Assembly: GCA_964568625.1 (NCBI GenBank)
Contig: CAZMQG010000001.1
Location: 83,393-147,392 of the forward strand
Length of the DNA stretch: 64,000 bases
Origin: an uncultured Pseudomonadota bacterium
Lineage (GTDB): Bacteria; Babelota; Babeliae; Babelales; RVW-14
Direction: 5' to 3'
The notes beneath the pieces were generated by a model. That model was not told the origin of the DNA. It saw only the letters and a list, made by a program, of their open reading frames with translations, and did no database searches. Positions 5,836-55,467 of the stretch are shown here, one piece after another (position 1 is the first letter of the stretch; every line of letters starts with the position of its first letter). The position numbers and the translations under genes were made by a program.

Positions 5836-5847
5836 TTTACCAAACTT

Positions 5848-9701: not shown

Positions 9702-9799
9702 TCCCCTTATTCAAGCATCAAAATAATAGATTAATATCCTAGCTAAAGATTGCCAGCACATAATGCAATTTGTCAATAAACCATGCATTGCTATATTAA

Positions 9800-10990: not shown

Positions 10991-11006
10991 TTGATTAAAA
11001 AGTGAA

Positions 11007-11408: not shown

Positions 11409-11466
11409 AAAAACTCCGATAAAAATACAACTGCAATAATTATGAAGGTTATGATCTTAAAACCTT

Positions 11467-12036: not shown

Positions 12037-12199
12037 AAAAACTCCTACAACCTACGACTATTTTTTCATAGTCAAACTTACATATAAACATTCAAGAGTG
12101 CTTGCAATTAAATACTTTTTTTTAAAAAAAATCAAGCAGTTTTCCCATCCAAAAATATTTTAAATTTGTTATACTCCTAAAAATTACTAAAGGGATTCC

Positions 12200-37524: not shown

Positions 37525-40173
37525 ATGGCAAAACTTAACAATTTTAAAGTATTTAAACACATATTACCCAACGGCCTTACAATTTTAGTCAAACCACAGT
37601 ATACCATACCTAGAGTAGAATCACACCTCTGGTACAATGTCGGCTCAAAAGATGAAGGGCAGGGAGAACAGGGCATCACCCATCTGATCGAACATATGCT
37701 ATTTAAGGGCACTAAAAACCTTTCTGAGTCAGATATAAATTTGATCACACATAAGCTGTCAGGCAACTCAAACGCCTTCACTTCACACGATGCTACCTGC
37801 TATACATTCCGATTTCCCAGCAACGTGTGGCAAGAGTCATTAGCCCTTTTTGCAGAATGCATGCAAAATGCCAGATTCGACCCAGAAACTCTTGCATCGG
37901 AGCTCAAGGCTGTCATTGAAGAATTCAGGCTATACCAAGACGATTATCAGGGATTGGTTGTTGAAAAAATTATTGAATCACTTTGGCCACAGCACCCATA
38001 TAGAACACCGGTTCTTGGCTTAAAACAAGACATATGCAATATCGGTCAAAAAAAGCTTCTTGAGTATTACAAAAAACACTATCATCCTGCCAATGCAACA
38101 TTAGTCGTAGTTGGAGATGTTCAACCTAACGAAGTCTTCAAATTAGCAGAAACATATTTTGGTAAAATACCTGGAAATCCTAATTACAAAAAACATGATT
38201 TTTTATTTGAGCCAGATATTCAACGTAAAACCGTTCAACTATTCAGGGATATTCAGGTTCCTTGGTGTTGTTACTTTTTTGAAATTCCGGGACTACGTGA
38301 TGGCCAAAACTATATTTTTGACGCCGCATCACTTCTACTTGGAGGAGGGAAAAGCTCCAGATTACACAAAAAACTGGTTGAACAAACAGAAATAGCAGTA
38401 GAAGTTGCCTGCTCAATTTATGAATTCTTTGATCGTGGACTTTTTGCAATAACGGTATATCCAAAAAGCATGGATAATATCGCTGAAATAGAACAAATCA
38501 TAAATCTTGAAATTCTAGAATTACAAAAAAAATCAATTGCAGATTGGGAAATGGAATCAGTCAAGAAACGCGCCCAAGTTGATTTTACCACCTTACTTGA
38601 AGACACTGAGAAACAGGCCGCCATGATCGGCAACCTTTATCTTGCAACAAAAGATGAATCCGCTTTTGAAAAATATATGGGAAATATTGAAAAGCTAGAC
38701 AAAAAACAAATTCAAAACTTTTTCATAGAATATTTCAGTCCTGCAACACTACATGCAGGATATTTATATCCAATACTTGAATTAGACAAACCAAAGTTCC
38801 ATAAAATACAAACAGAAGCAGATAATCAAGAGGCAAAACTTCTACAAAAGCTCACTCGCTCGACACCACTTGAAAATGGAAAATGGATCAACAAAATAGG
38901 TGATGCTAAACTACAAAAATTTAGTTATCCAAAACTAAAAAGCTTTACCATGGACAATGGCCTGGTTATAACTTTTTATAACAATCCAACAATTCCAAGC
39001 ATTAGCGCAATTTTAAATTTTAAAGCAAGCAGTTTATACGATGAAAACGATGTTGAAGGCTGTTTTATTTTTTTAATAAGACTCATGCTGGAAAGAACAA
39101 AAAAATATGATGCAAAAAAATTGGCCCAGTTACTCGAAACAAATGGAATCTACATTGGAAATCTTAACGATGTAATCACATTCAAATGTTTGAACCAAAA
39201 TTTTGAACAGGCGCTTGATATTTTATATCAAATTCTAACGCAGCCATCATTTGATACTCAAACAATTTCAAAAATAAAACATCAAGTGATTAGCGAACTA
39301 AAAGAATTTTGGGATACTCCTATTGAATTTATTGAACAGATAACTCGTGAGCATATTTATCAAAAACATCCATACAGTAAAAATCCTGTAGGAACCCTGA
39401 AAAGCGTTTCTAATTTAACAGCATCCGACTTAAAAAAATGCTTTAAGAAGTATATCTCTCCCGTAAACACAAATTTAATAATAGTGGGCGATTTAAACAA
39501 TATTGATCTGGAAAAAACCGTAAAAAAATATCTTGGATCATGGCATGGACCGGAAATACCAGAGTTAGAATTTCCAGCAATTATCTTACCAAAGGATAAT
39601 GAAAAGCACATAAATTCAAACCGAGACCAAACCGTAATTACAATTGCAGCTCCATCCGTATCCAGAAAATCACCTGAATATAATCATCTTGCAATTTTGG
39701 ATGTAATATTAACCGGCGGGCCTGGATTCTCTTCCAACTCAAGACTGTTTGATTTACGCGAAAAATACGGGCTATTTTACGCTATAGGCGGTTCATTAGT
39801 GTATGGCGCAAAAGAAGAACCAGGATTAATGCTCATAAAAACATTGGTAAGTCATGACAAGGTAGAAAAAGCAAAAAAATTAATACTTGCATCAATTAAT
39901 GATTTAGGGCAGAATGGAATTATTCAGGATGAATTTGAAATGGCCAAAAACATGATTCTATCGAGCTTAGTTGAAAATTTTGAGAGTAATATGCAAACGG
40001 CCAGCGCCTTTCTTTTTTTGAAAAAATTTAAATTAGATATAAATTTATTTGACAAAATGGGGGATACTTTCTCTATAATAAAGATAGATGAAGTAAATAA
40101 AGTTGCTAAAAAGTTTTGTCGAAGTAGTTGTTTTTCTTTTATTACGGTTGGTAGGGCTAGACCGAATCGATAG
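37525..40173 (+). CDS. M16 (pitrilysin) zinc peptidase with fused halves
   Basis: WYNVGSKDE, HLIEHMLFKGT (HxxEH), NAFTS, YHPANATLVVVGD; second half carries SRLFDLREKYGLFY. Confidence 0.9.
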   Translation: MAKLNNFKVFKHILPNGLTILVKPQYTIPRVESHLWYNVGSKDEGQGEQGITHLIEHMLFKGTKNLSESDINLITHKLSGNSNAFTSHDATCYTFRFPSNVWQESLALFAECMQNARFDPETLASELKAVIEEFRLYQDDYQGLVVEKIIESLWPQHPYRTPVLGLKQDICNIGQKKLLEYYKKHYHPANATLVVVGDVQPNEVFKLAETYFGKIPGNPNYKKHDFLFEPDIQRKTVQLFRDIQVPWCCYFFEIPGLRDGQNYIFDAASLLLGGGKSSRLHKKLVEQTEIAVEVACSIYEFFDRGLFAITVYPKSMDNIAEIEQIINLEILELQKKSIADWEMESVKKRAQVDFTTLLEDTEKQAAMIGNLYLATKDESAFEKYMGNIEKLDKKQIQNFFIEYFSPATLHAGYLYPILELDKPKFHKIQTEADNQEAKLLQKLTRSTPLENGKWINKIGDAKLQKFSYPKLKSFTMDNGLVITFYNNPTIPSISAILNFKASSLYDENDVEGCFIFLIRLMLERTKKYDAKKLAQLLETNGIYIGNLNDVITFKCLNQNFEQALDILYQILTQPSFDTQTISKIKHQVISELKEFWDTPIEFIEQITREHIYQKHPYSKNPVGTLKSVSNLTASDLKKCFKKYISPVNTNLIIVGDLNNIDLEKTVKKYLGSWHGPEIPELEFPAIILPKDNEKHINSNRDQTVITIAAPSVSRKSPEYNHLAILDVILTGGPGFSSNSRLFDLREKYGLFYAIGGSLVYGAKEEPGLMLIKTLVSHDKVEKAKKLILASINDLGQNGIIQDEFEMAKNMILSSLVENFESNMQTASAFLFLKKFKLDINLFDKMGDTFSIIKIDEVNKVAKKFCRSSCFSFITVGRARPNR

Positions 40174-40198
40174 CCCCAAAGGAAGTAAGGAGAATAGC

Positions 40199-40360
40199 AT
40201 GGCAGTCAAGAAAAAAGCAAAAAAGGCAGCTAAAAAAGTTGCTAAGAAGGCAACCAAAAAAGTTGCTAAGAAAAAGGTAGCTAAGAAGGCAGCTAAGAAA
40301 GTTGTCAAAAAAGTTGCTAAAAAGGCAGCTAAAAAAGTCAGCATGAAACTTGTCAAGTAA
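40199..40360 (+). CDS. Histone H1-like Lys/Ala-rich small protein (53 aa)
   Basis: AAGGAG RBS at 40187-92; 26 of 53 residues are Lys, none acidic; KK(A/V)(A/T/V) repeats; followed by a terminator. Confidence 0.8.
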   Translation: MAVKKKAKKAAKKVAKKATKKVAKKKVAKKAAKKVVKKVAKKAAKKVSMKLVK

Positions 40361-40384: not shown

Positions 40385-40416
40385 AAAGCGATCCATAACA
40401 GGGTCGCTTTTTTTTT
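40385..40416 (+). terminator. Rho-independent terminator
   Basis: aaagcgatcc-ataaca-gggtcgcttt followed by a T-run. Confidence 0.85.
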
Positions 40417-40500: not shown

Positions 40501-41004
40501 ATGACTTGTGCAAATAGTTTTTCTAAGACATTGATGATGGGTGCGGTATTTACGGTTATTGCATTACTTGGACTTGGAATTTGGTACGTCAAATTTGCAA
40601 GCAAAAATGAAATTCAACATACACTGGCAATCATTAAGCCTGATGCCGTAGCAGCCGGAAACAGTGGTAAAATCATTGATAAAATTGAACAAAGCGGATT
40701 CAAAATTATTGCAATGAAAAAAACTGAATTAACAAAAGAAAAAGCAGAAGAGTTCTATGCCGTTCACAAGGATAAACCATTCTTCGGCGAACTTGTAAGC
40801 TTTATGACTAGCGGCCCAATTGTTGTTCTTGTTCTTGAAAAAGAAAATGCAATTCAAGAATGGCGCAAGCTTATGGGTAAGGCAGAGATCGAAGGAACAT
40901 TACGCAACTTGTTCGGCACAAGTGTTACCAAGAATGCAGTTCACGGTTCTGACGCTCCTGAAACAGCAAAAGTCGAAATTAAACAGTTCTTTCCAGAACT
41001 TTAA
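40501..41004 (+). CDS. ndk: Nucleoside diphosphate kinase with an N-terminal hydrophobic anchor or signal
   Basis: TLAIIKPDAV, FYAVHKDKPFF, FMTSGP, GTLR, NAVHGSD (phospho-His). Confidence 0.92.
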   Translation: MTCANSFSKTLMMGAVFTVIALLGLGIWYVKFASKNEIQHTLAIIKPDAVAAGNSGKIIDKIEQSGFKIIAMKKTELTKEKAEEFYAVHKDKPFFGELVSFMTSGPIVVLVLEKENAIQEWRKLMGKAEIEGTLRNLFGTSVTKNAVHGSDAPETAKVEIKQFFPEL

Positions 41005-41024: not shown

Positions 41025-41070
41025 AAAAAGTAGAGGCGCAGGTTTTTCAACGTGCGCCTCTACTTTTTTT
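41025..41070 (+). terminator. Rho-independent terminator
   Basis: aaaaagtagaggcgca ... tgcgcctctacttttt, 16-bp stem ending in a T-run. Confidence 0.88.
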
Positions 41071-41172: not shown

Positions 41173-44100
41173 ATGAATAAATTTCTGAGAATAATACTGT
41201 TATTTTGCATTGCATTCACGTTGGAATCAAATGCAATGCAGCCAAAATTAATCACACTCAAAACTAATCTCGGCACCTTAACAACAAAGCTGCAAATACT
41301 AGGACAAAAACTCGAAGCACTAAAAAACAAGCTCTCAGATAAAATTCAACCTGAATATCAAAAAAACCTAGATATTTACGCCCTGTACGGAGATAATCCA
41401 GGTATAATTAATGATTCTACAACAGGGCAACCAAGAGAATTAAAACTAGATAAGGACAAAAATTTAAGGCTTGTCGGGCTAGAAAATACTTCTTACACGG
41501 GCTATGGCTATAAAACAGCAAACCTCAGAGAACTGCAAAATATTATAAAAGAGATGAAAATCGCAAAGCCAACAACCTCAGAAGAACAACAATATATAAC
41601 TCAAACTAAAAAACTTAATTTCTTGAAATTACTTAAAAAACAAACTCTAAACATAGGTTATGCCGTTCCAGATTTTATAGGAATAAGCTCTGAAAACATA
41701 AAAAAATATCTCTTAAGTAAAAGCCTCAATATATCAAAACAGTGGAAGGATCTAACATCAACAATCCCTGCATCTGACCAAAAGGCATCTTTACAATCCA
41801 AAAATTTGCCTACCGCTTTTGTGACTGGAATTAATGGAATAGAAAAAGCAGTTAAGAATAAATTTCTTGGTGCAGCAGCTATTTCAATCGTAGATTTAGA
41901 TAAAGAGTTTAATACATCAGGCATAAAAACATTTTTAAGCACAGCGAAAGCTAAAAACCTCAAATTAATGGTTAGAAGTACAGGAAAAGAAGACACTGAC
42001 CAGTTGGCAAATGCAGGAGGTAATGAAACTATCGGCAATGTAGATCCAATCGACAAAAATATTTTAATGGCAATGGGACAAGGCCCAGAGGATCCCATTA
42101 ATAAAGGGGAGTTTAAACTAGGGGTCGTCTCATCATACTTTGGACTAAAATCATTTACACAAAGAATAAAAGCCGGCGATCTATCACTTTATGAAGAACC
42201 TCCAACCCCTGCTCTTATTCAAGTTATGATTGGTGAAACTCCTGATGAAATTACATCATGCGGCGTCATGTTTACTGAAGAGCCAGAAGGCGGAATTTCA
42301 CAAAAAAAAGAGATAAATTCCGACACCGGTCAGATTAAAACTACAGGCATTACACGTATTGAATGTTCTTATGGACATAACGAGGGTGTGGTTAACAGCA
42401 TGGTCCCAGTTGATGTTTACTACATCGATAATAAAAAGGAAATAAACTCCATAATTAGAATAAAAGATAAAAGAATAATTCCTACCCCAAAAGGATTTCA
42501 AATAACTACAAATGATAAACGCTTAGATGGAAGTTTAGCGGCAGATAAAGACTTACCTAATCAACCCGCGCTATCTAAAGAAGAAGTTAAGGCCCTCAAA
42601 ACTTTATCAAATTATCTTGAATTTCATTATAAAAAACCGATGGATGTTGAATTTGTTTTGAAAAAGGCTAATCCAACAGATAAAAAGCGCACCATTTATC
42701 TTGTTCAAGCTCGTCCAATTGTCCACAATGATAAAAAAATTACACCCAGCTATATTTTAAAACCGGAGGATTTTACTGAAAAAGTTACAGGAGAAGTTAT
42801 TGGCATCGCCGGAGGAGCGCTTAGACTCGTAAAAAGTAGAAACGAATGTGTTATCGCAGAAACACTTAAAGAAGCTCTTGAAATTTATCAAAAACTCGAC
42901 TCTTCAGATAATATTAATTGTATATTCGTGAAAAACATGGCTCCGGCAACTTCACATGAAGCAACGCAATTCAGAACGGAACAAAAAGCTGTAATGTGCG
43001 TACCTGAAGTTCAAATAATTGAAAAGTGGCTTCAAGAAAATAAATTTATTCTCATAGATATACAACAGGAACTTGTCACTGCTTGGGATGGAGATCCTAA
43101 TCTTGAAGAAGCACTAAAAAATGATACCCGACTGCACGATGGTTGGATTAACTACCCAATTCCAATGAAATTAACACTCGATGATCTTAAAGACAAAAAA
43201 TATAATAAAAAATTTTCTGCACTCAGCATAAGTGAAATAAACGCAAACTTTAAAGAATTCTTAAACTCTGATTATTTTAAAAATGTTGCAACCATGGCAC
43301 AAGATCAGGCAAAAAAAGATTTCATTAAGAAAAAAGGAGCTAAGCGAACAGTAAATTTAGCAATGTTTCGAATATGCTTCAATTCAATAAAAAAAGATGT
43401 TGAAGAATCAGCAAAATTAAATCTATGTAAGCTTTGCCTAGGCCTAAGTTCCCTTATAAATCAAATGCTAAAACAACTGAAGGATGATGATTTTACTTAT
43501 CAATCCAAACTTATATTGAATCATCTTTTAATACATGCTAAACAAGTAAGTTCTGTTTTGAAAATTCAACCATCTGACGCTAACTATTTCCAACGCTTAT
43601 ATGAAGTAAGATTTTTAGAATCCATTCTATTTCAAACTTCATCCAATGATATTTTTAATAATTATTCATTAGAAAATTTAACAACAAATATTTATGCAAA
43701 AGAGAAATCGATCGAAAAAGAGTTAAGAAAAACCGTACCAATGACGGTTGTAGGTGAAAAATTCAACCAACTAGTTCAATATGGAAAAGCTGCAGAATTT
43801 ATCCTAACCGATGATTTAAAGGCAAAATGGAATAAACTTCTAACTCAACTTCCCAATACTGATCTTAAAACTGATCAGAAAAAATTTAATGTAATGTTTG
43901 ATAATTTAGCAAAAAACAATCTTTTAACCGTTTGGTTTTTATTAAGCGTTGAACCGGTAATAAAAAATAAAAATATTACTTCAAAATTTGAAGCCCATAA
44001 TATAATTGATCAATTATATTCGGATTACAATACAAATAAGCCATTTATCGACGAATTAAAAAAACAAAGAGATAAATTTAATGAGTTAGAAATATCACTG

Positions 44101-47100
44101 TGGAGTAGCGCACATAAATTTGGCAAACAAAAAGAAAATTTAGAAAAAATTGGGGCATACTTTAAAAACCAAGCATTTTTCGACTCATACAACGCCTCAG
44201 GCAATCTGGGCAAAGTATTTGCAACTCAGGTAATGGAAGAATTTATTACTCTTTTTGACACATCAATAAAACAACTTGAAAGCAGCCTAAAAGAATATCC
44301 TGATGAACAAACTCTTATTACTAATATCAAAACTTTAATTACACTGTTTTTAAGTTTTTTATCTGAGTGGATTAATAAGTTTCCGGGAGCAATAAATATC
44401 GATGGGGCTAATGCTTGGGGAGGCCAAACATATACTCAACAAAAATACGACACCGCACAAGCAACTTTGTCCGGTATTTCACCAAATTCCACTAACTATA
44501 ATGACCAAATCAAAATATCTCCAACATTTGATGTAGGAGCATCTGCAATCGGAGGATCTAAAGAGACGGTTGCCAATCTTACAACATTAGAGGATATATT
44601 TACATTTACCCATCAAAGTTTATTGAACATATTAGGTTTTTTAAATAAAAGCATAGATATATTTGGAGCTTGCCCCCAAATAATTTCAAGACTAAATACA
44701 GAACTAACATCTGAAATAAAAACATTAACATCAACTGCTTATGTTGCGCCAAAAGACATAACATTAGCAGGATTATCGATTGAGGGTAAAAATTTAAAAC
44801 TAAAATATAACTATCCTCTCCGTGGACACAGTATGACTATCAATATTAACTTTGAAATAAAAACGAAAATAACAACTATTGCCTGCGAAATTGCCGGTAC
44901 TGGAGGTGGCGCAGGCGGAAATGAATTTGCAAGATTTTATAAAATAGGGGATTACATTGATGTTACAAGCAAAGCGTTAAATTTAAAATCAAATTATAGA
45001 TTCGAAATTCAGGATAAAAAAATAATATGGGAGTGGAAAATTGATTCTAAAACACCTGATATAAATATTTCAAAAATCAAAAATTTAATATTTGAAGCAG
45101 TTTGCATTTCATATGCCGTAAATAACTATCATAATGCAATGGCCTATGAAGCCAAGATATATCAAGAAACCTTTAATTTTATAGATAAAAACGCACTGAC
45201 AACACAGATCATAATTTTTTCAGAACAAAAGGAAAGATTGCACAGTGTTTTCGTAACAGCGCTTGAAAATCTTCCCCAAAATGCAACGTCCTGTAATAAC
45301 TGGGCAAAGACAATTGAAATTTTAGGAAAACTTATTAATGAAAATAATCCATATAGAATAAACACCGAATGTTTCTTTTTTAAAAAATACCACGATCCTT
45401 ACATGGGAGGGTTCCATCATCAATTAAATTATTTGAATATAGAAAATACATTATATCATGAATTAACCTCAAAAAATTATTTATCCATATCCAACACAGA
45501 GATTCAAAACATTGATTTAAAGAGAAATTACTTCAAATTCCGCGAGGCTAAAAAGATATTTAACTATCTGTGCCAAGTTTCACAATATTTTGACGAAAAT
45601 TGTTGGAATAAATTTTTAGATTTAATTAAATCTAACACTGAGCTAGTACTTGGCTTAGAAGACTTAACCCTTGATGATATGGAGGGAGATGGCCCCGCAG
45701 CGGCTAATTTAGAAAATACGGGCACTCAAGGCAGAACTCTAAAACTGCACAATTCCATATCAAAATTATTTAATAACGGATTTACAAGCAAGGTTGCAGG
45801 AGTTAAAGATAAGGCAAAAGCAACAGCAGAAACTTTAATATCAATGGGAATAACTGGTGGGCATCCAGAATGGACAACCGTAAAAGATCTAATTTTAAAT
45901 CAATATACACCCAAATTTGGAATATTTTCTTCTGCAGCGGTTCAGGCCACAATAATACAGTCAATTACAAAGACCCCAGAAGTATTTATTGCCCAAGCTA
46001 ATGCAGAAGATTCATTTAAATTAGTATATCCATCTAAAAAAGCTACATTAAAACCTTTTATAAGCTCATTAGGCGATTTTGCAATGAACCCGAATGATCA
46101 AATCTCCCAGGTAGCCTTCAAAATACTTACTTATTTAAAAGCCCAAGGAGAAGATATTTCAGCCTCATTTGCAAATATTTCGCAAAAAATAAAAACTGAC
46201 CAGGTCACGCTTTTACAACAACAAAAAATTACAAATTTAATAACTCTATTATATGATTTAGTTCCCAACCAAATGCAATTTTTGACAGAAGCAGAGGTAA
46301 TCGCAAAAAAGGCACTGAAATCATCAACTTTTACTACAAAAAATGAAGGAGTAAAATTAGCAAAATTCGTTTTATCCAAAAATCCAGCCGCCGCCTTTAA
46401 TCCTGCAGATTTAATCGATTTACAAGAAATAAAAAATTATATTGATCAATATACCTTCAATGATACGCCTGATAAAAAAGGGGAAAATGCTATCCAAAGC
46501 CTTAAATCAACCGGAACAGCAAATAAGGCAACTGTCCAAGATCCAATGCTTATAGATACAATAAAAAATCAAATCCAAAAGGGCTACTATTTCGGGAATA
46601 CCCAAAATCCAAATGTTTTAGATCTGTATGAATTGATTTCACAAAAAATCTATACTGACCATGAGTTAATCGAAACAGCAAAAACTGACTTAATGGGAAT
46701 ATTGAATAATACAAGCGTAGCCGATGGCGTTGTGCCAACTTATCCTGACCAACGTAATAAAATTGTAAATTTTGCAGAATATTTAATAAGAAATAACAAT
46801 GTAGATAAAAGTGACGTATGGGCCATTTTACAAGCTAGCGGAACAGACACAAAACGAAAATCATTAATTTGCATCCAGATTTTATTTAAAACTCATTACG
46901 ACACAAAAGAATTTTTCGATTTAAGCATTCCTTTAATATTTACCCAAATTAATGCCAATGACGGTGCAAGCAATTACAGTAAAATTGCAAATGATTGTTA
47001 TACGACACTTTACCAATCTATTATTCAAAATAAATATTCACACCAGGATAAGGCTCTATTAAAAACAACTCTTCAATCTTTGGCATTAACACCCGGATCA

Positions 47101-47142
47101 TACCCACAATCACAAAAAGAAGAGATTATTGGCTTATTATAA
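41173..47142 (+). CDS. Secreted 1989-aa PEP-synthase/PPDK-like dikinase (ATP-grasp plus phospho-His swivel) with a large unknown C-terminal region
   Basis: Signal peptide; LMVRSTGKED...AGGNET..NV, IQVMIG, GVMFT, SYGHNEGVVN, PMDVEF, IYLVQARP; swivel motif APATSHEATQFR (His595). No PEP-binding TIM-barrel signature. Confidence 0.8.
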   Translation: MNKFLRIILLFCIAFTLESNAMQPKLITLKTNLGTLTTKLQILGQKLEALKNKLSDKIQPEYQKNLDIYALYGDNPGIINDSTTGQPRELKLDKDKNLRLVGLENTSYTGYGYKTANLRELQNIIKEMKIAKPTTSEEQQYITQTKKLNFLKLLKKQTLNIGYAVPDFIGISSENIKKYLLSKSLNISKQWKDLTSTIPASDQKASLQSKNLPTAFVTGINGIEKAVKNKFLGAAAISIVDLDKEFNTSGIKTFLSTAKAKNLKLMVRSTGKEDTDQLANAGGNETIGNVDPIDKNILMAMGQGPEDPINKGEFKLGVVSSYFGLKSFTQRIKAGDLSLYEEPPTPALIQVMIGETPDEITSCGVMFTEEPEGGISQKKEINSDTGQIKTTGITRIECSYGHNEGVVNSMVPVDVYYIDNKKEINSIIRIKDKRIIPTPKGFQITTNDKRLDGSLAADKDLPNQPALSKEEVKALKTLSNYLEFHYKKPMDVEFVLKKANPTDKKRTIYLVQARPIVHNDKKITPSYILKPEDFTEKVTGEVIGIAGGALRLVKSRNECVIAETLKEALEIYQKLDSSDNINCIFVKNMAPATSHEATQFRTEQKAVMCVPEVQIIEKWLQENKFILIDIQQELVTAWDGDPNLEEALKNDTRLHDGWINYPIPMKLTLDDLKDKKYNKKFSALSISEINANFKEFLNSDYFKNVATMAQDQAKKDFIKKKGAKRTVNLAMFRICFNSIKKDVEESAKLNLCKLCLGLSSLINQMLKQLKDDDFTYQSKLILNHLLIHAKQVSSVLKIQPSDANYFQRLYEVRFLESILFQTSSNDIFNNYSLENLTTNIYAKEKSIEKELRKTVPMTVVGEKFNQLVQYGKAAEFILTDDLKAKWNKLLTQLPNTDLKTDQKKFNVMFDNLAKNNLLTVWFLLSVEPVIKNKNITSKFEAHNIIDQLYSDYNTNKPFIDELKKQRDKFNELEISLWSSAHKFGKQKENLEKIGAYFKNQAFFDSYNASGNLGKVFATQVMEEFITLFDTSIKQLESSLKEYPDEQTLITNIKTLITLFLSFLSEWINKFPGAINIDGANAWGGQTYTQQKYDTAQATLSGISPNSTNYNDQIKISPTFDVGASAIGGSKETVANLTTLEDIFTFTHQSLLNILGFLNKSIDIFGACPQIISRLNTELTSEIKTLTSTAYVAPKDITLAGLSIEGKNLKLKYNYPLRGHSMTININFEIKTKITTIACEIAGTGGGAGGNEFARFYKIGDYIDVTSKALNLKSNYRFEIQDKKIIWEWKIDSKTPDINISKIKNLIFEAVCISYAVNNYHNAMAYEAKIYQETFNFIDKNALTTQIIIFSEQKERLHSVFVTALENLPQNATSCNNWAKTIEILGKLINENNPYRINTECFFFKKYHDPYMGGFHHQLNYLNIENTLYHELTSKNYLSISNTEIQNIDLKRNYFKFREAKKIFNYLCQVSQYFDENCWNKFLDLIKSNTELVLGLEDLTLDDMEGDGPAAANLENTGTQGRTLKLHNSISKLFNNGFTSKVAGVKDKAKATAETLISMGITGGHPEWTTVKDLILNQYTPKFGIFSSAAVQATIIQSITKTPEVFIAQANAEDSFKLVYPSKKATLKPFISSLGDFAMNPNDQISQVAFKILTYLKAQGEDISASFANISQKIKTDQVTLLQQQKITNLITLLYDLVPNQMQFLTEAEVIAKKALKSSTFTTKNEGVKLAKFVLSKNPAAAFNPADLIDLQEIKNYIDQYTFNDTPDKKGENAIQSLKSTGTANKATVQDPMLIDTIKNQIQKGYYFGNTQNPNVLDLYELISQKIYTDHELIETAKTDLMGILNNTSVADGVVPTYPDQRNKIVNFAEYLIRNNNVDKSDVWAILQASGTDTKRKSLICIQILFKTHYDTKEFFDLSIPLIFTQINANDGASNYSKIANDCYTTLYQSIIQNKYSHQDKALLKTTLQSLALTPGSYPQSQKEEIIGLL

Positions 47143-47206
47143 AAGCCATTATTATTGTGTAGAATATGTCGATAAAATAGTATTTTTACCGTATTTTGAG
47201 TATTTT

Positions 47207-47235
47207 TTGCCAATATAAATTTCATTTCGTATAAT
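47207..47235 (+). promoter_or_regulatory. Sigma70 promoter for the single-domain phosphatase
   Basis: TTGCCA-17 nt-TATAAT. Confidence 0.6.
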
Positions 47236-47292
47236 TATATTGTCAAATAGTAGTATTTTTATACTTTTTTATCTAACTTGTTTGGAGGTTTT

Positions 47293-47847
47293 ATGAATAT
47301 TTTTAAAAACAGATCTTTTTTTTCTAAGTCATTTTTATTTTTTCCAGCAATTTTAATTACAGCAATCAGTTGTCACGCAATGCCTGAACAACCATTAAAT
47401 TTTGGCTGGCTTCTAGAAAACAAAATTTGCGGCATGGCAAGACCTAAAAAAACGGAACATTTAAGGTGGTTAGAAGAAAAGAACGTTGGACTTGTTGTTA
47501 CATTGACCGGCGAAGGCAATTTGCCTAATGCCATTTTTGATGGTACAAAACTAGAAAGACTTTATATTCCGGTCGAAGACTTTCACATTCCAACATTTGA
47601 GCAAGCGGATTTATTTATCAACAAAGTCACAGAATTTCTTAAAACAGGTAAATCAATCGTTGTCCATTGTGCCGGCGGCAAGGGAAGAACTGGAACAATG
47701 CTGGCGTGCTGGTTAGCTATAAAAGAAAATATGAATCCGGACGAAGCTATCAAATTTGTTCGTATAAAAAGACCTGGCTCAGTAGAAACCAAAGAGCAAG
47801 AACAATTTGTAAGAGATTATTTTGAATACTCAAAAAAGTCTAAGTAA
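47293..47847 (+). CDS. Secreted dual-specificity phosphatase (DUSP23-like)
   Basis: GGAGG RBS, signal peptide, NFGWL...GMARP, VEDFHIP general acid, HCAGGKGRTGTMLAC (Cx5R), RPGSVETKEQ. Confidence 0.88.
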   Translation: MNIFKNRSFFSKSFLFFPAILITAISCHAMPEQPLNFGWLLENKICGMARPKKTEHLRWLEEKNVGLVVTLTGEGNLPNAIFDGTKLERLYIPVEDFHIPTFEQADLFINKVTEFLKTGKSIVVHCAGGKGRTGTMLACWLAIKENMNPDEAIKFVRIKRPGSVETKEQEQFVRDYFEYSKKSK

Positions 47848-47885
47848 AAAATTTGTATGCTAAATAACCAGCAGACAAAATAAAT

Positions 47886-47923
47886 TCAAGCCACGAGTGT
47901 TAGATCTAACACTCGTGGCTTGA
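47886..47923. terminator. Perfect 38-bp palindrome between convergent genes
   Basis: tcaagccacgagtgttagatctaacactcgtggcttga equals its own reverse complement. Confidence 0.7.
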
Positions 47924-47932
47924 CCGTTTTAA

Positions 47933-50209
47933 CTATTTTGAATCATCTTTAAATTTCTTGATAGCGATTGCATCATAATTTTGACCAGATAAGCTATCAA
48001 TTTTTTGTAAAATATCTTGCGATATTTTATCACTGAATGACTTATTTTTAACAGCCATGGCAAGATGTCCTCTCAAATAAGCACTAAGCGTAGACTTTAG
48101 GCCCATACTAGAATTTATAAATATTTTTTCTACAGATTCAAGTACTAAATCTGTATCTTCTATTGGACCTAAGATTACACATACACCTTTAAATAAGTTA
48201 AACCCATCTATTATGCAAGATTTAACTGAAGCAGTCTTATTTTTTATAAAATCAACATCAATCCATTCAGGAAGATCACTACCACTAGTAAGACGCATAA
48301 CCATTCCAACCATTTTTCCTAAACACCCAACATGATCTAAATTAAATTGAACCATTGTCTCAAGCGTTGCCTTACTTGATAAAATGAATTTCAATATACC
48401 GTTAAAATGTTTTAAATTGTCTGAATCCTTTAATAAGAGATCTTTTGGGAACTTATATAAAAATGGTATCAGATTCAAATTCTTACGCTGAATACTATCA
48501 GCTACAAATCCATCAAAAATTAATTTTACAAAATCACAGTCCTTCTTATTTCCAGCGATTTTGTTATAAATTTCTCGCAAGATAGAAACTGATGTTTTTT
48601 CATCAAATTTAATTTCTTTTTCTACAAGTACAATTGGAACTTTCGATGCAATTTCAGCCTCCTTACTCAATTTTTCTTGAAGCTCTTTCTTCGCATCCGC
48701 CTCTTTTTTTAGTCTTTCAGCTTCTTCATGTACCTTCTTTAGAACTTCTGCTGCAGCTTCCTGGGCTTTTTGATCTTTATCTTTTTGCGCTTTTTCTGCA
48801 GCTTCTTGGGCCTCTCTTATCGTTCTAGCCTGTTCTTCTGCAATTCTTTTTTCTTCCTCTTCCTTAGCCTTTTTAGCTGCCTCAGCCACCTCTTCTTCTT
48901 TTGCTTTCGCATCAGCCATTCTCTTTGCCAACTCCTTGTCTATTGCTTTTATACAACGTAATGCATGAATTAAAGTCAAAAGCTGACGTTTGACAGTTCG
49001 CCCTTCAAAAGTAAAGCCTTTGACAGCATCTGTGTATCCAGGCGTTTGGGCCCCTACAACTTCAACTTTTGGACTTTTACCCGCATTTTCGAGCATGTAC
49101 AAATCGCAAGCTTCTGTAACCGCTTCAGTTTTTTCATCAAATCCATCCGCTATACTTGTTATTACTTTAATCAAATGGCTCAAACAAATAACCGCCAAAT
49201 TTTTGTATTTTCTTGCACCTGAATAATGCTGTCCTGAATACCAAAGAATTGCACCCGTAGCCCACTTCAAAAAAGATGGTTCACTGTACTTATTTGACAA
49301 AAGCGCATATGCCACAATCAAGCTTTGTGTACGCATAGTCAATAATGGCAACAAGCTTTTTAAAACTTCTGAATCTGTAACTTTGCCTTCAAGTATGGCC
49401 TCTGTTATATAATCGGCAGATGATTGTAAAAATTTTTTATTTTGCTCAACACCAACACCACTTACAATATTCCCGGCTTTAGCATTTACATACCCATCGT
49501 CAACCAAAGCCTTCATACTTGCAATAATTGCACCAGCGTTTGACGAATCAATTGCATTAACTTTCATACCCATTGCATACTGTTCAGCAACAGCAATTTC
49601 CCCTCCCCAAATTTTTTCATAAGGGCTATAAATATTTATAAGCGTTTGTTCATAATCTTTACAAATATATTTAATCTGAAATAGTTGCTCATCAGAAAAA
49701 CTACTTAATGATCCAAACAATTCCGCAAAATATTCTTTCTGTTTGGTAATAAGTTGTGCGTCTTTAGAAAATTCAGATAAATTACCCTTTAAATCCTGTT
49801 TTAGAAATTCAGTTTCTAAATTAATCAAATCATCTACTGGACCATCTTCCTTTTGAGTCTCATTCAACAAATAAAGATTATCATAAAATGCGTTTACAGC
49901 TCCTTGAAGCGTTGCTCGATCAATTACCCCTTGAACTAATCCATCTGGATTAATCCCACCACCAAGCTTACCTTCGCCCAATTGGAATTCTGCGCCTAAA
50001 GTTGGAGCACCGGTAATATCTTTATCTTCAAGTCTATCCTTAAGTAACCCAAGCTTTGTAACCAAAAGTTCATTTTTGTTTTTTAATTCTTTTAATTTAA
50101 CTGACAATTCGGTAAGAGAACTTTTCAAATCACCAGCCATACCCCATAAGTTTGAGGAAAAAACAAAAAATATAATAAATAATATTCGACGAACAATACG
50201 CCTTTTCAT
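47933..50209 (-). CDS. Secreted hypothetical protein with N-terminal heptad tag and central Glu/Lys/Ala coiled coil
   Basis: GGAG RBS, signal peptide, SLTELSVKLKELKNKNELLVTKLGLLKDRL, KAKEEE...KEAE stretch; no catalytic motif recognised. Confidence 0.7.
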   Translation of the reverse strand: MKRRIVRRILFIIFFVFSSNLWGMAGDLKSSLTELSVKLKELKNKNELLVTKLGLLKDRLEDKDITGAPTLGAEFQLGEGKLGGGINPDGLVQGVIDRATLQGAVNAFYDNLYLLNETQKEDGPVDDLINLETEFLKQDLKGNLSEFSKDAQLITKQKEYFAELFGSLSSFSDEQLFQIKYICKDYEQTLINIYSPYEKIWGGEIAVAEQYAMGMKVNAIDSSNAGAIIASMKALVDDGYVNAKAGNIVSGVGVEQNKKFLQSSADYITEAILEGKVTDSEVLKSLLPLLTMRTQSLIVAYALLSNKYSEPSFLKWATGAILWYSGQHYSGARKYKNLAVICLSHLIKVITSIADGFDEKTEAVTEACDLYMLENAGKSPKVEVVGAQTPGYTDAVKGFTFEGRTVKRQLLTLIHALRCIKAIDKELAKRMADAKAKEEEVAEAAKKAKEEEEKRIAEEQARTIREAQEAAEKAQKDKDQKAQEAAAEVLKKVHEEAERLKKEADAKKELQEKLSKEAEIASKVPIVLVEKEIKFDEKTSVSILREIYNKIAGNKKDCDFVKLIFDGFVADSIQRKNLNLIPFLYKFPKDLLLKDSDNLKHFNGILKFILSSKATLETMVQFNLDHVGCLGKMVGMVMRLTSGSDLPEWIDVDFIKNKTASVKSCIIDGFNLFKGVCVILGPIEDTDLVLESVEKIFINSSMGLKSTLSAYLRGHLAMAVKNKSFSDKISQDILQKIDSLSGQNYDAIAIKKFKDDSK

Positions 50210-50270
50210 ACTAGTCTCCTAAAAATATTTATATCAACCCATCAATTAAATTTCTTTTTTGTTTTTAAAT

Positions 50271-51590
50271 TTATTTAATCAAGAGCTTAGTTTTGAGAAT
50301 TAACAACTTTTCCTGCAATATACTAAGCTTCCCTTGAAAAGAAACAAGCGATCCCTTTAAACTACTCAATTTCTCGCGCAGTCTATTTAGCTGTTGTTCC
50401 CGCTCAATCCCTTCATAAAATTCTCCAATTTCTTCAGCTTCTTCAATTTGTTTTTTTGATTTTCTCCCCTTTGATAACTGTTTTGCCTCTTTTAATTTTT
50501 TGGCCAGAATATCACCACTTGGAGCTTCGGCTAAATTCCCAGTTAGCTGCCTTATTTTTTTATCTACCTTTTTCAATTTTTTTAATTTTCTGTTAAGTAA
50601 AATATTATAATATCTCAAAACAAACTTTATTTGCTCATCTGTTTCTATCGACCCAGGCCTCTTTGCTCTAACAAGATTAATAGCATCGACAGCCTTCATA
50701 TTTTTATTTGCTAGCAACCAACATGCAAGAATTGTCCCCGTTCTCCCCTTCCCTCCCCAGCAATGCACAACCGTTGCTTTACCGTTGGATTTCAAAATTT
50801 TTTTAGATTTTTCTATAAATTTATCAACCTGATCTATTGTAGGCACACCAAAATCATGAATTGGAAGGAATAGCCGTTCGATATCAACACTTTTAAATAT
50901 TTCAGGATCAGGGCCTTCTCCTGGCTCAGTAAGCGTCACAACCAGTCCCACATTAAGATCATGTAACGCCTTGATTTGTTCATTAGTTTTTGGCATAGCC
51001 ATACCGGCAATTACCCCATCTACAACCCAAGAAAAATTATTTCTCTTTAAAATTAAATATCTATAATATTCTTTAACAAAAATTTCCTGATCAATAGACG
51101 CTATTGATCCCAGACTTTTATTACGTACCAATTTTATAGCTATATCTGGGCTCATATCTGTATTTGCCAACAACCAACATGCAAGCATTGTTCCCGTTCG
51201 CCCCTTGCCTAACCGACAATGAACAACTGTTGCTTTCCCAGTCTTATCCCAAACTTCTTTAGATTTTTCTATAAATTTATTAACCTGATCCACAGTCGGA
51301 ATTCTCCCATCAGGTATAGGGAAAATGAAACGTTCAATATCAACGTTCTTGAAGATTTCAGGAACAGGGCCTTCTTTTGGCTCAGTAAGGGTCACAACAA
51401 GACCAACATTAAGATCATGTAACGCCTTGATTTGTTCATTAGTTTTTGGCATAGCCATACCGGCAATTCCCCCATCTACAATCCAAAAAAATTTATTTTT
51501 CTTTAACGTATTCGGAATCGTTTTCGCACAATGCAAAGCTTGAAAAAATAAGACACTTGCAATAATTATTCTTTTAAATAAAATACGCAT
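50271..51590 (-). CDS. Secreted tandem dual-specificity phosphatase with C-terminal heptad tag
   Basis: GGAG RBS, signal peptide; two DSP domains (HCRLGKGRT, HCWGGKGRT) offset by 152 aa. Confidence 0.88.
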   Translation of the reverse strand: MRILFKRIIIASVLFFQALHCAKTIPNTLKKNKFFWIVDGGIAGMAMPKTNEQIKALHDLNVGLVVTLTEPKEGPVPEIFKNVDIERFIFPIPDGRIPTVDQVNKFIEKSKEVWDKTGKATVVHCRLGKGRTGTMLACWLLANTDMSPDIAIKLVRNKSLGSIASIDQEIFVKEYYRYLILKRNNFSWVVDGVIAGMAMPKTNEQIKALHDLNVGLVVTLTEPGEGPDPEIFKSVDIERLFLPIHDFGVPTIDQVDKFIEKSKKILKSNGKATVVHCWGGKGRTGTILACWLLANKNMKAVDAINLVRAKRPGSIETDEQIKFVLRYYNILLNRKLKKLKKVDKKIRQLTGNLAEAPSGDILAKKLKEAKQLSKGRKSKKQIEEAEEIGEFYEGIEREQQLNRLREKLSSLKGSLVSFQGKLSILQEKLLILKTKLLIK

Positions 51591-51668: not shown

Positions 51669-51695
51669 AAAAGGCGTAGGAAAAAATCCTACGCC
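51669..51695 (-). terminator. Terminator downstream of clpB
   Basis: Minus strand ggcgtagga-ttttt-tcctacgcc-tttt. Confidence 0.75.
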
Positions 51696-51731
51696 CAAAC
51701 CATTATTAAGTTATTTTTATATAAATAAATC

Positions 51732-54290
51732 TTAACTGATCACAATCTGATCTTTTTTTGCATCAATTGTAAAAAGCTTTTTGTCAGGGTTTTTAAGAAT
51801 TTGTATGGAAAGCGGACTCACAACATAATGTTGCACAGCTCGTTTGAGTGGTCGAGCTCCAAACTCCTTCTGATATCCAAGCTCACCCAAAAGCTTAATT
51901 GCATTGCTGGTAACATCAAGCTCTATGTTTTTCTCCTTCAACCGATCGTTTAGATGATCAAGCTGAATGCGTACAATCTGTTCGATATCTTTTTGATTCA
52001 AAGATTTAAAGAACACGACTTCGTCAATTCTATTAAGAATCTCCGGACGGAAATATTTAAGAAGTAAGCCATCAATCTCTTTACGAACTTTTTCTGTAAT
52101 ATCACCTGCAGCTAAAATCAAATCTGAACCGATATTTGAAGTCATAATAATTATGCAATTTTTAAATGATACAGTGCGACCTTGCGAATCGGTCAGATGC
52201 CCCTCATCAAGAATCTGTAAAAAAATATTAAACACATCAGGATGGGCTTTTTCAATCTCATCAAAAAGCACCACGCTGTAAGGATTTTTGCGCACTGCTT
52301 CCGTTAATTGGCCACCCTCTTCGTAACCAACATAACCCGGAGGAGCTCCAATCAGACGAGCAACTGCATGCTTTTCCATATACTCGGACATATCAATGCG
52401 AATCATCTTACGTTCGTCATTAAAAAGATAATCTGCCAAAGTTTTGGCAACTTCTGTTTTGCCAACACCGGTTGGCCCAAGAAACAGAAATGAGCCGATT
52501 GGTTTGTTTGGATCAGCAATTCCCGACCTGTGAATTCGAATGGTATCAGAAATTTTAGTAATCGCCTCATCCTGGCCTATAACTCGTTTGTGTAACTCAC
52601 TTTCCATCTCGATGAGCTTTTGGCTTTCATCGGATTTGAGTTTTTCAACAGGAACATGCAACCAGCGAGATAACACAAGAGCAATGTCATCCTCATCAAC
52701 TTCTTCTTTGATCAGATGAGTTTTGAGTTTTTTAAGTTTATCCTGTTCCTGTGCTAATTTTTTCTCAAGTTCGACAATTTTACCGTATTTAATCTTTGAG
52801 GCTTTTGCAAAATCACCCTCACGTTCAGCCTGTGAAAATTCAACTTTTGCAGCGTCAATCTGCTCTTTTATTTTTTGCATAACCTCAAGAGGCTTACGTT
52901 CGGACTGCCACTGTTCTGTTTTTATTTTATATGACTCTTTAAGGTCTGAAAGCTCTTTTTCTAACTCATTCAGTCGAGTTTTTGAATTTTCATCTTTCTC
53001 TTTGCTAAGTGCAACTTTTTCAATCTCAAGCTGCGTTATACGACGAGAGAGCTGATCAATATCCTCAGGTTTTGAATCTATTGCCATTTTCACCATTGAG
53101 GCGGCTTCGTCAATTAAATCAATTGCTTTATCAGGTAAAAAACGATCTGGAATCATACGTGATGAAAGTTGTACAGCTTTAACAAGCGCTGAGTCTTTGA
53201 TTCTAATTCCGTGATGCAGTTCATAACGCTCTTTCAGTCCACGTAAAATTGAAATCGCATCTTGCTCTGTTGGCTCTTCAATTAAAACTTTTTGGAATCT
53301 ACGCTCAAGCGCTGCATCTTTTTCAATATATTTTTTGTACTCAGCAATTGTTGTTGCGCCAACACAATGCAACATACCGCGCGCAAGTGCAGGTTTTAAT
53401 AAATTTGAGGCATCCATTCCACCATTGGTTGCACCAGCACCAACAAGCATGTGTAATTCATCAATAAAAAGAATAATTCCCTCCGGCTCTTTTTCAATCG
53501 CCTGCAAAATGGCTTTCAAGCGTTCCTCAAATTCACCCCGATACTTTGTTCCTGCTATCAGGGATCCAAGATCAAGTGCCAAAATTTTGCGATTTTTAAG
53601 ACTCTCCGGAACGTCATTATCAATAATACGTTGCGCTATACCTTCAACAATGGCAGTTTTCCCAACACCGGGATCCCCGACAAGTACAGGATTATTTTTT
53701 GTACGTCGTGATAAAATTTGAACAACTCGCCTGATTTCATCATTTCTGCCAATAACAGGATCAAGCTTCCCATCACGAGCAAGCTTAGTAAGATCTTTGC
53801 AGTATTTTTCAAGAACCTGATAACCACTCTCCGCATTTTGATTTTTCACCGTATCCCCTCCCCGCATATTTTTAATCCATTCTAAAACCTTCTGTCCCGT
53901 AAAACCATTCTGTTTAAAATACTGTTGGATTTGACTAGGTAAAGTTGATGTTTTTGCAAATGCCAACATGCAAACATCAAGACTGATAAATTCATCCCCA
54001 AATGTTTTTGCCTCTTTTTCGCATTCACTTAAAAATTTCTGAAAAGAACTATCAACAGATATCTGACCGCCGGAAACTTTTGGCAAGCGAGACGATTCCT
54101 GCTCTACAATATTCTTTAAATTATCTATATCAAGCCCGCAGGCACGAAATCCCGATGCACAAAAATCGTTGTTTAAAGAAGAATACAAAAGATGAATTGG
54201 AGAAAATGTTGAATACTGTTCCTGAGTTGCTAACGTATAAGCTTCTTGTAATAGCTCTGTAAATGCGTTTGTAAATTTTTCTGAATTCAT
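51732..54290 (-). CDS. clpB: Chaperone ClpB
   Basis: Two AAA+ modules ([14 protein letters not shown]; [14 protein letters not shown]), coiled-coil M domain, FGARPLKR; AGGAG RBS before MNSEKF. Confidence 0.95.
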
Positions 54291-54327
54291 GCAAAAACTC
54301 CTAAAATTTATCTTAAATAGAAATGAA

Positions 54328-55467
54328 TTAAGCCAGTTCTGAGAATTGCTCACGTGGTATTGGAACGTAACTTAAATGCAAAGATCTTCCCCATGCCATT
54401 AAGAAACTGCGCAATCTGTACGCCTTTGGAGTCGTAGAATTTCTAGGAAATGCCGGATCTATACATAAAACACACTGCTTCTCTTTATTCCATCCTACAA
54501 CCACCATCAGGTGCCCATTAGTGTATGATGTAGCGCCTCCACGTAATTTGCGAACACTAACGGCTACAGGAATTTTTTTAGAAAGATATTTGTAGAGATC
54601 ATCAAAAAAGTTCAGCCTCTCAACTCGAAAGAAAACATTTCCATAAGTTGCATCATGAGCAGCTGCAACATTAAGCGGCCAGTTTCCATAAATATTTAAG
54701 TACCCGTTGTCATAAACTTTATCTGCAAAATCAACCATATAACTATTCAAATCATGCGAACAGTCACCATAAAGTTTTTTATTAAAATAATTTACAATAA
54801 TTCCGGTAGAGGTTGGTGAACACAAGTCACGATAACGTGGATGATTCAGTACCATTTGAGACTGTCTTGGTACACCGCTCACAATAACAGAAGGAAGGTT
54901 CGAAACGTAGGAATCACCCTTAAATTTTTTAACATTCGATAAACATGCAAACAAGGCTTTTAGATTTTTGGGATTTGCACCCTTTTGAAACACAACCTTA
55001 ACCTTAAATGCCGTACCCAGCTGCCCCTTTTTCAACTCCACTTTAGAGTGTGTTGTATGCACATAACGATTAAGCTTATTAACAAAAGTTCGCTGAGATG
55101 TAGCTCCCCACTCAGCAAGACGTTGCCATCCTGCCCAAGATGAGTGCTTTACATTAACCCAAAAAGTCATTTTCCCTTTTTCAGGACGCATCGCATTCCA
55201 CGACAAAATGAGCTCGGTAAATGGAAAGTTTGGCTCACATTCCCAAATAAAAAACTCTTGATCTGATTCAATCTCACCTTCAAAAATATACCTTGATACT
55301 GTTTTTGAAAATTTTTCGCTACTAAAAGATTGAGTCGAATCTAAATCCCTGTGTCGTTTTCTTCTTCCTGAACTTACTGCATTTACATTCAGAAAATTAA
55401 ACGTAACACACGCTATTAAAAATAAAAAAAAACGCTTTTTAAATCCAATAAAAACCTTCATTAACAT
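54328..55467 (-). CDS. Secreted peptidase C39-like family protein
   Basis: Signal peptide; RSQMV...LCSPTST (Cys), GHLMVVVG (His), IDPA (Asp). Confidence 0.75.

Follow-up and report, generated by a model that had tools for sequence, protein, structure and literature searches.

The window analysed here, a 64,000-nucleotide stretch of contig CAZMQG010000001.1 from a protist-infecting member of the Babeliales (Dependentiae), contains a four-gene locus between ndk and clpB. Its genes, termed A, B, C and D, encode a predicted phospho-histidine (His) dikinase (A), two predicted dual-specificity phosphatase (DSP) proteins (B and D) and a conserved protein without recognized domains (C). We favour, with a probability of roughly 0.58, the reading that the locus specifies an exported, host-directed dikinase-phosphatase machine, in which A would act through His595 and its third domain, B and D would hydrolyze the same or a coupled phosphoester, and leucine-heptad tags would assemble A, C and D. 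This reading is built on domain identities, motif conservation, gene fusions and synteny, and the phyletic pattern of the family. The initial annotation of this DNA had described one dikinase-like protein, two phosphatase genes with three intact Cx5R sites, signal-peptide-like N-termini on all four products and a heptad tag on three of them, and each of these features was recovered in the analysis. The layout of the locus, derived from the open reading frame (ORF) listing of the window, is as follows.

41025-41068, plus strand: intrinsic terminator of ndk, marking the left edge of the module (20-nt arms, 95% complementary, then a T-run).
41173-47142, plus strand: gene A, 1989 aa, with the Shine-Dalgarno sequence AAGGGAG upstream.
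47293-47847 (longer alternative TTG start at 47278), plus strand: gene B, 184 aa, DUSP23-like phosphatase with a signal-peptide-like N-terminus.
47886-47923, no strand assigned: 17-bp hairpin between the convergent genes B and C, resembling a bidirectional terminator.
47933-50209, minus strand: gene C, 758 aa, a conserved module member in which Pfam recognizes no domain.
50271-51590, minus strand: gene D, 439 aa, tandem DSP with a signal-peptide-like N-terminus.
51672-51696, minus strand: terminator-like hairpin of clpB; right boundary of the module.

The ORFs lie where the initial annotation had placed them, framed by the three hairpins, downstream of ndk (40501-41004) and bracketed on the other side by clpB (51732-54353, minus strand). 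Gene B most likely begins at 47293, an ATG with GGAGG in front of it, and not at the upstream TTG (47278). Genes D and C are probably transcribed together, since they lie on the same strand with a gap of 61 bp. The GC content of the module genes (0.32-0.35) matches that of the flanks, and no integrase or flanking repeats were found at the locus in the window. Because of this ordinary composition, and because the same ndk..clpB slot is occupied in distant relatives (loci L080 and L084), the earlier label of an acquired "island" has to be dropped; what is seen is not a mobile island but a chromosomal site that is conserved and at the same time evolves fast.

The product of gene A comprises the following regions, all encoded on the plus strand.

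41173-41235, plus strand: signal-peptide-like segment, residues 1-21 (...ESNA/MQPK), read from the sequence.
41236-41343, plus strand: leucine-heptad tag, residues 22-57.
41500-42732, plus strand: ATP-grasp nucleotide-binding domain with the motifs GYGYKTANL, MVRSTGKED and VQARP.
42748-43140, plus strand: phospho-His (swivel-like) domain, with TSHEATQFR at 42949-42975 and the codon of His595 at 42955-42957.
43228-44715, plus strand: all-helical third domain with invariant D1029 and K1033 (FDTSIK), E1140, H1147 and Q1148 (THQSLL); candidate acceptor site.
44761-45411, plus strand: beta/alpha module X2, residues 1197-1413, with invariant R1254; a stand-alone copy is joined to a DSP in relatives.
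45412-47139, plus strand: variable helical C-terminal region, whose tail (residues ~1789-1963) is common to fused relatives.

An alignment of 52 family sequences (profile of 1406 positions) delimits a conserved core at residues ~100-1250 of A. Pfam PPDK_N matches residues 161-522 with an E-value of 7e-23, within an ATP-grasp domain spanning residues ~110-520, and in a search of the PDB with the family profile this region matches Listeria rifampin phosphotransferase (RPH-Lm) and phosphoenolpyruvate (PEP) synthases (PEPS) at ~E 1e-20. The motifs VRS..ED, GV.FT, G..E..V, D.E and VQ.RP align with those enzymes, and the conserved Lys, Arg, Glu and Gln motifs of the His-swivel dikinase ATP-grasp domain are present. 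The phospho-His motif of A is APATSHEATQFR, with the His at residue 595. The corresponding TSH motif (TSHEATxFR) occurs in 107 of 120 homologues and in 146 of the 169 members of a larger set. A profile alignment to PEPS (8a8e) extends through the His domain, and the family consensus ApaTSHEATtFR falls on the PEPS catalytic GGRTSHAAIVSR (GGRTSH). Judged from these motifs, A possesses both defining sequence features of the His-swivel (PEP-utilizing) dikinase superfamily. The AlphaFold2 models are confident (predicted local distance difference test, pLDDT, 86.6 and 89.3), and the top Foldseek match of the N-terminal half is full-length RPH-Lm at 1e-9, followed by the dikinase subunit HpeI.

The likeness of A to RPH-Lm (PDB 5HV1/5FBS), PEPS and pyruvate phosphate dikinase (PPDK) thus lies in the ATP-grasp catalytic motifs and in the mobile His domain with TSH on the catalytic His. 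In A, the His domain directly follows the ATP-grasp domain, which gives the order ATP-grasp, His domain, C-terminal acceptor-side domain known from PEPS and PPDK; in RPH, by contrast, a rifampin-binding domain lies between the ATP-grasp and the C-terminal His domain. Neither the rifampin-binding domain nor the RPH order is found in A, the NCBIfam model RIF_Ptrans_rph scoring 27 bits against a cut-off of 999. The PEP/pyruvate TIM barrel (PF02896) is missing as well: past the N-terminal part of A there is no Pfam or NCBIfam match, and NCBIfam scores are all far under the cut-offs. Its place is taken by the helical third domain and the beta/alpha module. The A family further differs from RPH and PEPS in its size of 1200-2200 aa, its signal peptide and its occurrence in intracellular symbionts.

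The third domain comprises ~500-600 aa and is all-helical in the AlphaFold2 model; its FDxSIK and HQxL motifs are present in ~80-85% of the 169 near-full-length family members. Foldseek with this domain alone gave no significant match (best E-value 0.33 in the PDB, and 7e-3 at a TM-score of 0.1 in BFVD), and neither it nor X2 has a significant fold relative in these two databases. Bet v1/PR-10-like and ARPC2-like matches of the third domain were weak and judged to be noise. Compared with the PDB by sequence, the C-terminal 700 aa of A yielded coiled-coil noise or nothing. A 98%-identical strain (L081, 10001-15340) encodes a shorter A of 1779 aa with a ~240-aa internal deletion matching window positions ~45940-46670, which shows that the variable C-terminal region tolerates large insertions and deletions.

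The catalytic features of the phosphatases are located as follows.

47665-47688, plus strand: P-loop HCAGGKGR of B.
51057-51506, minus strand: first phosphatase domain of D (DSP1), with HCRLGKGR at 51198-51221.
50604-51050, minus strand: second phosphatase domain of D (DSP2), with HCWGGKGR at 50742-50765.

Pfam recognizes one DSP domain in B and two in D (PTP-SAK, 1e-30 and 2e-58), and in all three both the HCx5R signature and the upstream general-acid Asp are intact. Human DUSP23 matches B over the whole domain with an E-value of 1.4e-26, followed by archaeal small protein tyrosine phosphatases (PTPs), with lipid phosphatases only at ~1e-6. These matches identify B and D, as predicted proteins, as bona fide DUSP23-like DSPs and not as glucan phosphatases. 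With human DUSP23 (VHZ) and archaeal SsoPTP/Tk-PTP they share full-domain homology (E 1e-26), HCx5R, the general-acid Asp and the minimal size; they differ from them in carrying predicted export signals, in being tandem in D, in being tagged and, among relatives, in being embedded in a 2000-aa dikinase. The two domains of D are a tandem duplication (50696-50995 versus 51152-51451, 80% nucleotide identity, 456-nt spacing); the L080 orthologue of D has a single domain, and the duplication is recent. In DSP1 the conserved RPGSIET motif has decayed to SLGSIAS. Outside Babeliales, D is closest to eukaryotic proteins of the DUSP23/PTPDC1 type and to DSPs that are joined to P-loop kinases (AAA_33) and RNA ligases (P0142, P0149 and P0172). 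Weaker matches of the DSPs include PTP-like phytase and XopH. The idea that the GKGR P-loop is PTEN-like was rejected, as its lysine is not conserved among linked DSPs.

The initial annotation had likened the module to plant starch metabolism, where glucan water dikinase (GWD) is paired with SEX4/LSF2, and the likeness to this pair, or to laforin in the starch/glycogen phosphorylation cycle, does consist of a His-swivel dikinase paired with a Cx5R DSP. Three points leave the analogy unsupported. No carbohydrate-binding module (CBM) of any Pfam family, CBM45, CBM48 and CBM20 included, occurs in A, B, C or D at E<=0.01; the DSPs are of the DUSP23 type; and the domain order of A is PEPS-like, not GWD-like. 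In GWD, the His domain lies ahead of the ATP-grasp domain, the reverse of the order in A.

Coupling of the dikinase with DSPs is seen most directly in relatives of A. At least eight of them (1880-2155 aa) combine PPDK_N and a DSP in one chain, in two architectures: P0007-P0012 and P0014 have the DSP close to the C-terminus, and P0038 has it at the N-terminus. The fusions retain the signal peptide, the tag, the TSH motif and the C-terminal tail of A. Where the genes are separate, they are neighbours. In L080, whose A orthologue is 56% identical, the order is M16 peptidase, ndk, A, DSP, C-like (minus strand), DSP (minus strand), clpB. In L084 (~31% identity) the ndk..clpB slot is filled by clpB, a 338-aa gene, a tagged 701-aa DSP protein, C-like, a dikinase-DSP fusion, DSP and ndk, and L007 has the same arrangement, beside clpB. 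Three tandem dikinase paralogues followed by a DSP are found in L079, and three DSP genes flank the dikinase in L082. A DSP adjoins the dikinase in every examined locus of the A clade whose contig reaches past the dikinase gene. The ndk..clpB slot thus holds the same three families where A is just ~30-56% identical, for which vertical inheritance of a conserved three-family module in this Babeliales slot is the best explanation.

Among species-representative genomes, nine DSP genes are concentrated in four loci (72 kb) out of 1.15 Mb surrounding 77 family members; the remaining 1.08 Mb around the 73 other members contains no strong-score DSP and one weak match (L072). In a rough neighbor-joining tree, the window A, its orthologues and the C-terminal fusions form one tag-bearing clade, and P0038 and P0027 are DSP-linked from outside it, which gives at least two outside cases. 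A tagged 697-aa DSP protein in L007 is a paralogue of the C-terminal half (X2, linker and DSP) of the neighbouring fusion (E 3e-36) and matches residues 1247-1413 of A (E 1e-10), so that a non-catalytic module is common to kinase and phosphatase proteins. The contexts of relatives come mostly from metagenome-assembled genomes (MAGs), some of them obviously mislabelled. Taken together, the fusions and gene neighbourhoods lend good support to a predicted functional coupling of dikinase and DSPs. That independent effectors merely share one variable locus, as effector genes often cluster and most family members lack a nearby DSP, is highly improbable in view of fusions in two independent architectures that recur in at least eight independent assemblies (an assembly artefact being unlikely), of a trio kept across ~30-56% identity and of a tag and X2 module shared by the three families.

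Several observations on these records are of separate interest. L083 encodes a 706-aa DSP protein of the same subfamily (4951-6090 and 10001-12121 noted) at another locus. No dikinase is encoded in the 10 kb around it; a Fic-domain protein and a series of ~330-aa paralogues are found a few genes away. The records L007, L002, L012, L031 and L017 are titled "Pseudomonadota," "Methanobacteriota archaeon" or "Planctomycetes"; these family-bearing MAGs are probably mis-binned or mislabelled, since their gene content and synteny are of the Babeliales type, with clpB beside the module in L007, for example. Runs of N split the dikinase gene in L007.

The distribution of the A family bears on where its members act. 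In a search of a representative library with the single window sequence of A as query, in which the matches listed were saturated by canonical family members, the family comprises 905 clusters at 50% identity at E<=1e-3, 750 at 1e-10 and 389 at 1e-30. It is found in Dependentiae/Babeliales, Chlamydiales/Parachlamydiaceae, Legionella, Coxiellaceae, Rickettsiaceae, Oligoflexia and some Myxococcota MAGs, and is thus almost confined to obligate or facultative intracellular lineages. All four module proteins begin with an n-h-c type N-terminus as read from the sequence, the hydrophobic 10-mers within the first 25 residues scoring 2.45-3.19 on the Kyte-Doolittle scale; small-residue motifs (SNA/M, CHA/M) follow the hydrophobic segments of module proteins, and Shine-Dalgarno-like motifs precede the starts that include the predicted signal peptides. 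An N-terminal hydrophobic segment is present in 96 of 116 Met-starting family members. The homologues of Legionella, Coxiellaceae, Rickettsiaceae and Chlamydiales lack a signal peptide and begin directly at the GxKxANL motif, a pattern to be expected if each lineage uses its own export route for the protein. Other family members (P0042, P0045, P0072 and P0043/P0073) are fused to an N-terminal UCH deubiquitinase domain or to C-terminal ankyrin or HEAT repeats, and the dikinase core is therefore paired with several host-interaction or eraser modules beyond DSPs. The signal peptides, the UCH and ankyrin paralogues and the restriction of the family to intracellular bacteria together make export and host targeting plausible, and an ATP-consuming enzyme behind a predicted signal peptide points to an ATP-containing destination.

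A Met codon lies exactly at the predicted mature N-terminus of A (SNA/MQPK, 41236), B (CHA/MPEQ, 47380) and C (WG/MAGD, 50141), and the same is true of 48 of 143 signal-peptide-bearing relatives, against ~20% expected. This suggests either an ancestral start codon in front of which a signal peptide was later added, or an internal start from which an isoform that is not exported is made. In the window the internal Met codons, among them those just past the signal peptides of A, C and D, have no Shine-Dalgarno motif.

Features of protein C, and the tag of D, are the following.

50141-50209, minus strand: signal-peptide-like segment of C.
50021-50140, minus strand: heptad tag of C.
~48635-48952, minus strand: central charged helix of C.
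50274-50393, minus strand: C-terminal heptad tag of D.

Comparison of C with the PDB by sequence gave coiled-coil noise or nothing, and a homology search with C retrieved only three close relatives; more distant C-like genes were found through synteny and pairwise BLAST. Such genes are located at the module in L080 (40% identity, full length), L004, L084 and L007. The tags of A, C and D are each other's best or near-best local matches among the 202 ORFs of the window (scores 42-51); unrelated ORFs reach at most 38 against them, with the exception of the clpB coiled coil, which scores 46 against the tag of D. A profile hidden Markov model (HMM) of the tag, built from relatives without C and D, matches A, C and D alone in the window. 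In relatives, too, the tag is confined to module proteins, recurring in dikinases, ~700-aa DSP proteins, C-like proteins and at the C-terminus of the D orthologue. A DNA-level likeness of the A and D tags (35 nt, 74%) proved no better than chance pairs in this AT-rich region. In L078, a 603-aa protein without a Pfam domain (179-1990), ~6 kb upstream of the A orthologue, carries a C-terminal heptad tag (HMM E 1e-6), and the tag may therefore mark further members of a complex.

For the dikinase-phosphatase machine proposed here, the following mechanism can be envisaged. The ATP-grasp domain of A would bind ATP and pass its beta-phosphate to His595 on the swivel-like domain, which would hand it to an acceptor held by the helical third domain with its invariant D, K, E, H, Q and R residues. 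By established dikinase chemistry, the expected reaction would be ATP + acceptor-OH + H2O giving AMP + Pi + acceptor-phosphate via His595~P, ATP thus ending as AMP and Pi. B and D would act on the same target or pathway, as erasers of the mark or in a coupled step. The leucine-heptad tags most likely act as zippers that join A, C and D, encoded separately, in one complex, in place of the covalent fusion of relatives, and C could serve in it as scaffold or adaptor. Catalysis, export beyond the periplasm, complex formation, the nature of the acceptor and opposing action on one substrate are what we infer from the observations above; the reversible action of kinase and phosphatases on one substrate, the writer/eraser arrangement of the initial annotation, would be one form of it. 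As to the acceptor, the kinship with DUSP23 and the UCH fusions lead us to lean toward a protein, while the kinase- and ligase-fused DSP relatives keep a nucleic acid in play.

A number of points weigh against this proposal. Pfam PEP-utilizers (PF00391) stays below threshold on isolated His regions (E 0.17-0.23), and the third domain is without a known fold, so that the acceptor is not identifiable from it. Linkage to a DSP is the property of a subclade, present in 4 of 77 species-representative loci, and the dikinase family as a whole consequently does not need one. The tag is a low-complexity similarity with modest statistics, the HMM E-values being 0.19 for C and 8.2 for D over the whole sequence (0.09 for its best domain). 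A kinase and a phosphatase working on one substrate in the same complex would run a futile cycle unless regulated or spatially ordered. In addition, the window shows no secretion system dedicated to effectors, and ATP could reach the periplasm of bacteria inside the host cytoplasm, which would make a periplasmic role possible. Signal peptides alone are weak evidence of host targeting, since they are very common in Dependentiae, with 44% of coding sequences carrying them in the cultured relative C. destructans (PMC6561590).

The best-surviving alternative, a possible though clearly less probable one, is that the activities are coupled and not antagonistic, performing successive or cyclic steps on one class of substrate. 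The options include a glucan-type cycle that opens a host polymer, following GWD/SEX4 logic, the movement of phosphates on a polyphosphorylated lipid or inositol, and the healing or modification of nucleic-acid ends as by polynucleotide kinase-phosphatases. The union of kinase and phosphatase in one chain is typical of sequential or regulatory logic, and the closest DSP relatives outside Babeliales are often fused to AAA_33 P-loop kinases and RNA ligases; among Pfam models the "Swiss Army Knife" DSP scores best, and the phytase and XopH matches, albeit weaker, fit as well. This explanation is opposed by the lack of any carbohydrate-, lipid- or nucleic-acid-binding domain detected in A-D by Pfam or NCBIfam, by the protein phosphatase DUSP23 as by far the closest solved relative of the DSPs (1e-26 versus 1e-6 for lipid phosphatases) and by the variable P-loop lysine of the linked DSPs.

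Somewhat more tentative still is the idea that A represents a new class of protein-modifying His-swivel dikinase, which would phosphorylate a side-chain hydroxyl of a host protein via phospho-His, without a protein-kinase fold, with its phosphatases fused or tag-zipped to it and its third domain as the protein-substrate site. Aryl-hydroxyl dikinases phosphorylate phenolic OH groups, which is tyrosine side-chain chemistry. A tyrosine-like aryl hydroxyl would accordingly be a plausible target in such a reaction, given the phosphotyrosine-phosphatase partners of the DUSP23 type and the structural kinship with these dikinases (phenylphosphate synthase and HpeHI; PDB 9goj), of which HpeI is the second-best structural match of the ATP-grasp part of A. 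They differ from A in being multi-subunit catabolic enzymes for small molecules, without such a third domain and without a phosphatase partner.

It is unlikely that the module serves the envelope or periplasm of the bacterium itself, modifying an envelope component or an imported host metabolite, with the signal peptides denoting Sec export alone. The signals are only of the Sec type, their frequency in C. destructans is high, no effector-type secretion apparatus lies nearby, and the neighbourhood is a stable housekeeping one with ordinary GC. The homologues of Legionella, Coxiellaceae, Rickettsiaceae and Chlamydiales, however, lack signal peptides, and the periplasm is thus not the common workplace of the family; the targets of the UCH deubiquitinase and ankyrin domains on paralogues are exclusively eukaryotic; and the need for ATP speaks against a classical periplasm.

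Even less probable is self-regulation, in which the DSPs would dephosphorylate A itself, or C as an HPr-like phospho-acceptor, and not a host product. His-swivel enzymes can hand phosphate to a partner protein, as from Enzyme I to HPr, C is a conserved, tagged partner without domains, and relatives hold the phosphatase within the same polypeptide. On the other hand, Cys-based DSPs are not known to act as phospho-His phosphatases, up to four DSP copies per locus seem excessive for this purpose, and nothing in the analysis supports phosphorylation of C.

Adjacent genes for opposing modifications are known among effectors delivered to the host by Legionella, in the writer/eraser pairs SidM/SidD, AnkX/Lem3 and SidE/DupA. 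The Babeliales module resembles them in logic only: they perform AMPylation, phosphocholination and phosphoribosyl-ubiquitination, in contrast to the predicted dikinase phosphorylation, and in the module the writer and presumed eraser are often one polypeptide. The effector-domain atlas of L. pneumophila lists just two ATP-grasp effectors, Lpg1684 and Lpg1925, which are different proteins, unrelated to the A family. No description of the dikinase family or of its pairing with DSPs was found in the literature searched, in agreement with the initial annotation, which had not recognized a described system. Judged from its sequences, the A family is a new branch within the superfamily of dikinases, set apart by a new predicted acceptor-side domain and a recurrent phosphatase partnership.

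To our knowledge, His-swivel dikinases have been described only for small molecules, an antibiotic and glucans, and almost no effectors of Dependentiae have been characterized. The present branch is large (389 clusters at E<=1e-30), has a conserved new candidate acceptor domain and is, in one clade, physically coupled to eukaryote-type phosphatases. If A acts on a host molecule, this would be a new effector chemistry with a built-in writer/eraser or kinase-phosphatase cycle, and it gives Dependentiae a concrete, testable system of host manipulation. The leucine-heptad tag may be a simple rule for the reassembly of separately exported subunits.

Outside the module, the adjoining ndk gene has a ~35-aa N-terminal extension with a strongly hydrophobic segment (MMGAVFTVIALLGLGIWYV), and its product looks membrane-anchored or exported. 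The ndk orthologues adjoining the module in L078, L080 and L084 are also long (171-212 aa). An 85-aa ORF located upstream of ndk (40103-40360, plus strand) ends in an extremely Lys/Ala-rich repeat (AKKAAKKVAKKATKKV...) that recalls histone H1 or chlamydial Hc1; it has no Pfam match and is followed by a terminator-like hairpin at 40385-40410. Genes of 46-53 aa are called at its position in L080 and L081.

Elsewhere in the window, a signal-peptide-bearing protein (23774-24904, minus strand) has the appearance of a polymorphic toxin, with a Hint-domain match at the N-terminus and a "Cytotoxic" domain (colicin E3-type rRNase) at the C-terminus. Genes of the mevalonate pathway (3251-10990, minus strand) code for a GHMP kinase, thiolase, HMG-CoA synthase-like protein and HMG-CoA reductase, and this run is split by two signal-peptide-bearing genes, for a WD40 beta-propeller (7012-8397) and a calcineurin-like phosphoesterase (8445-9701).

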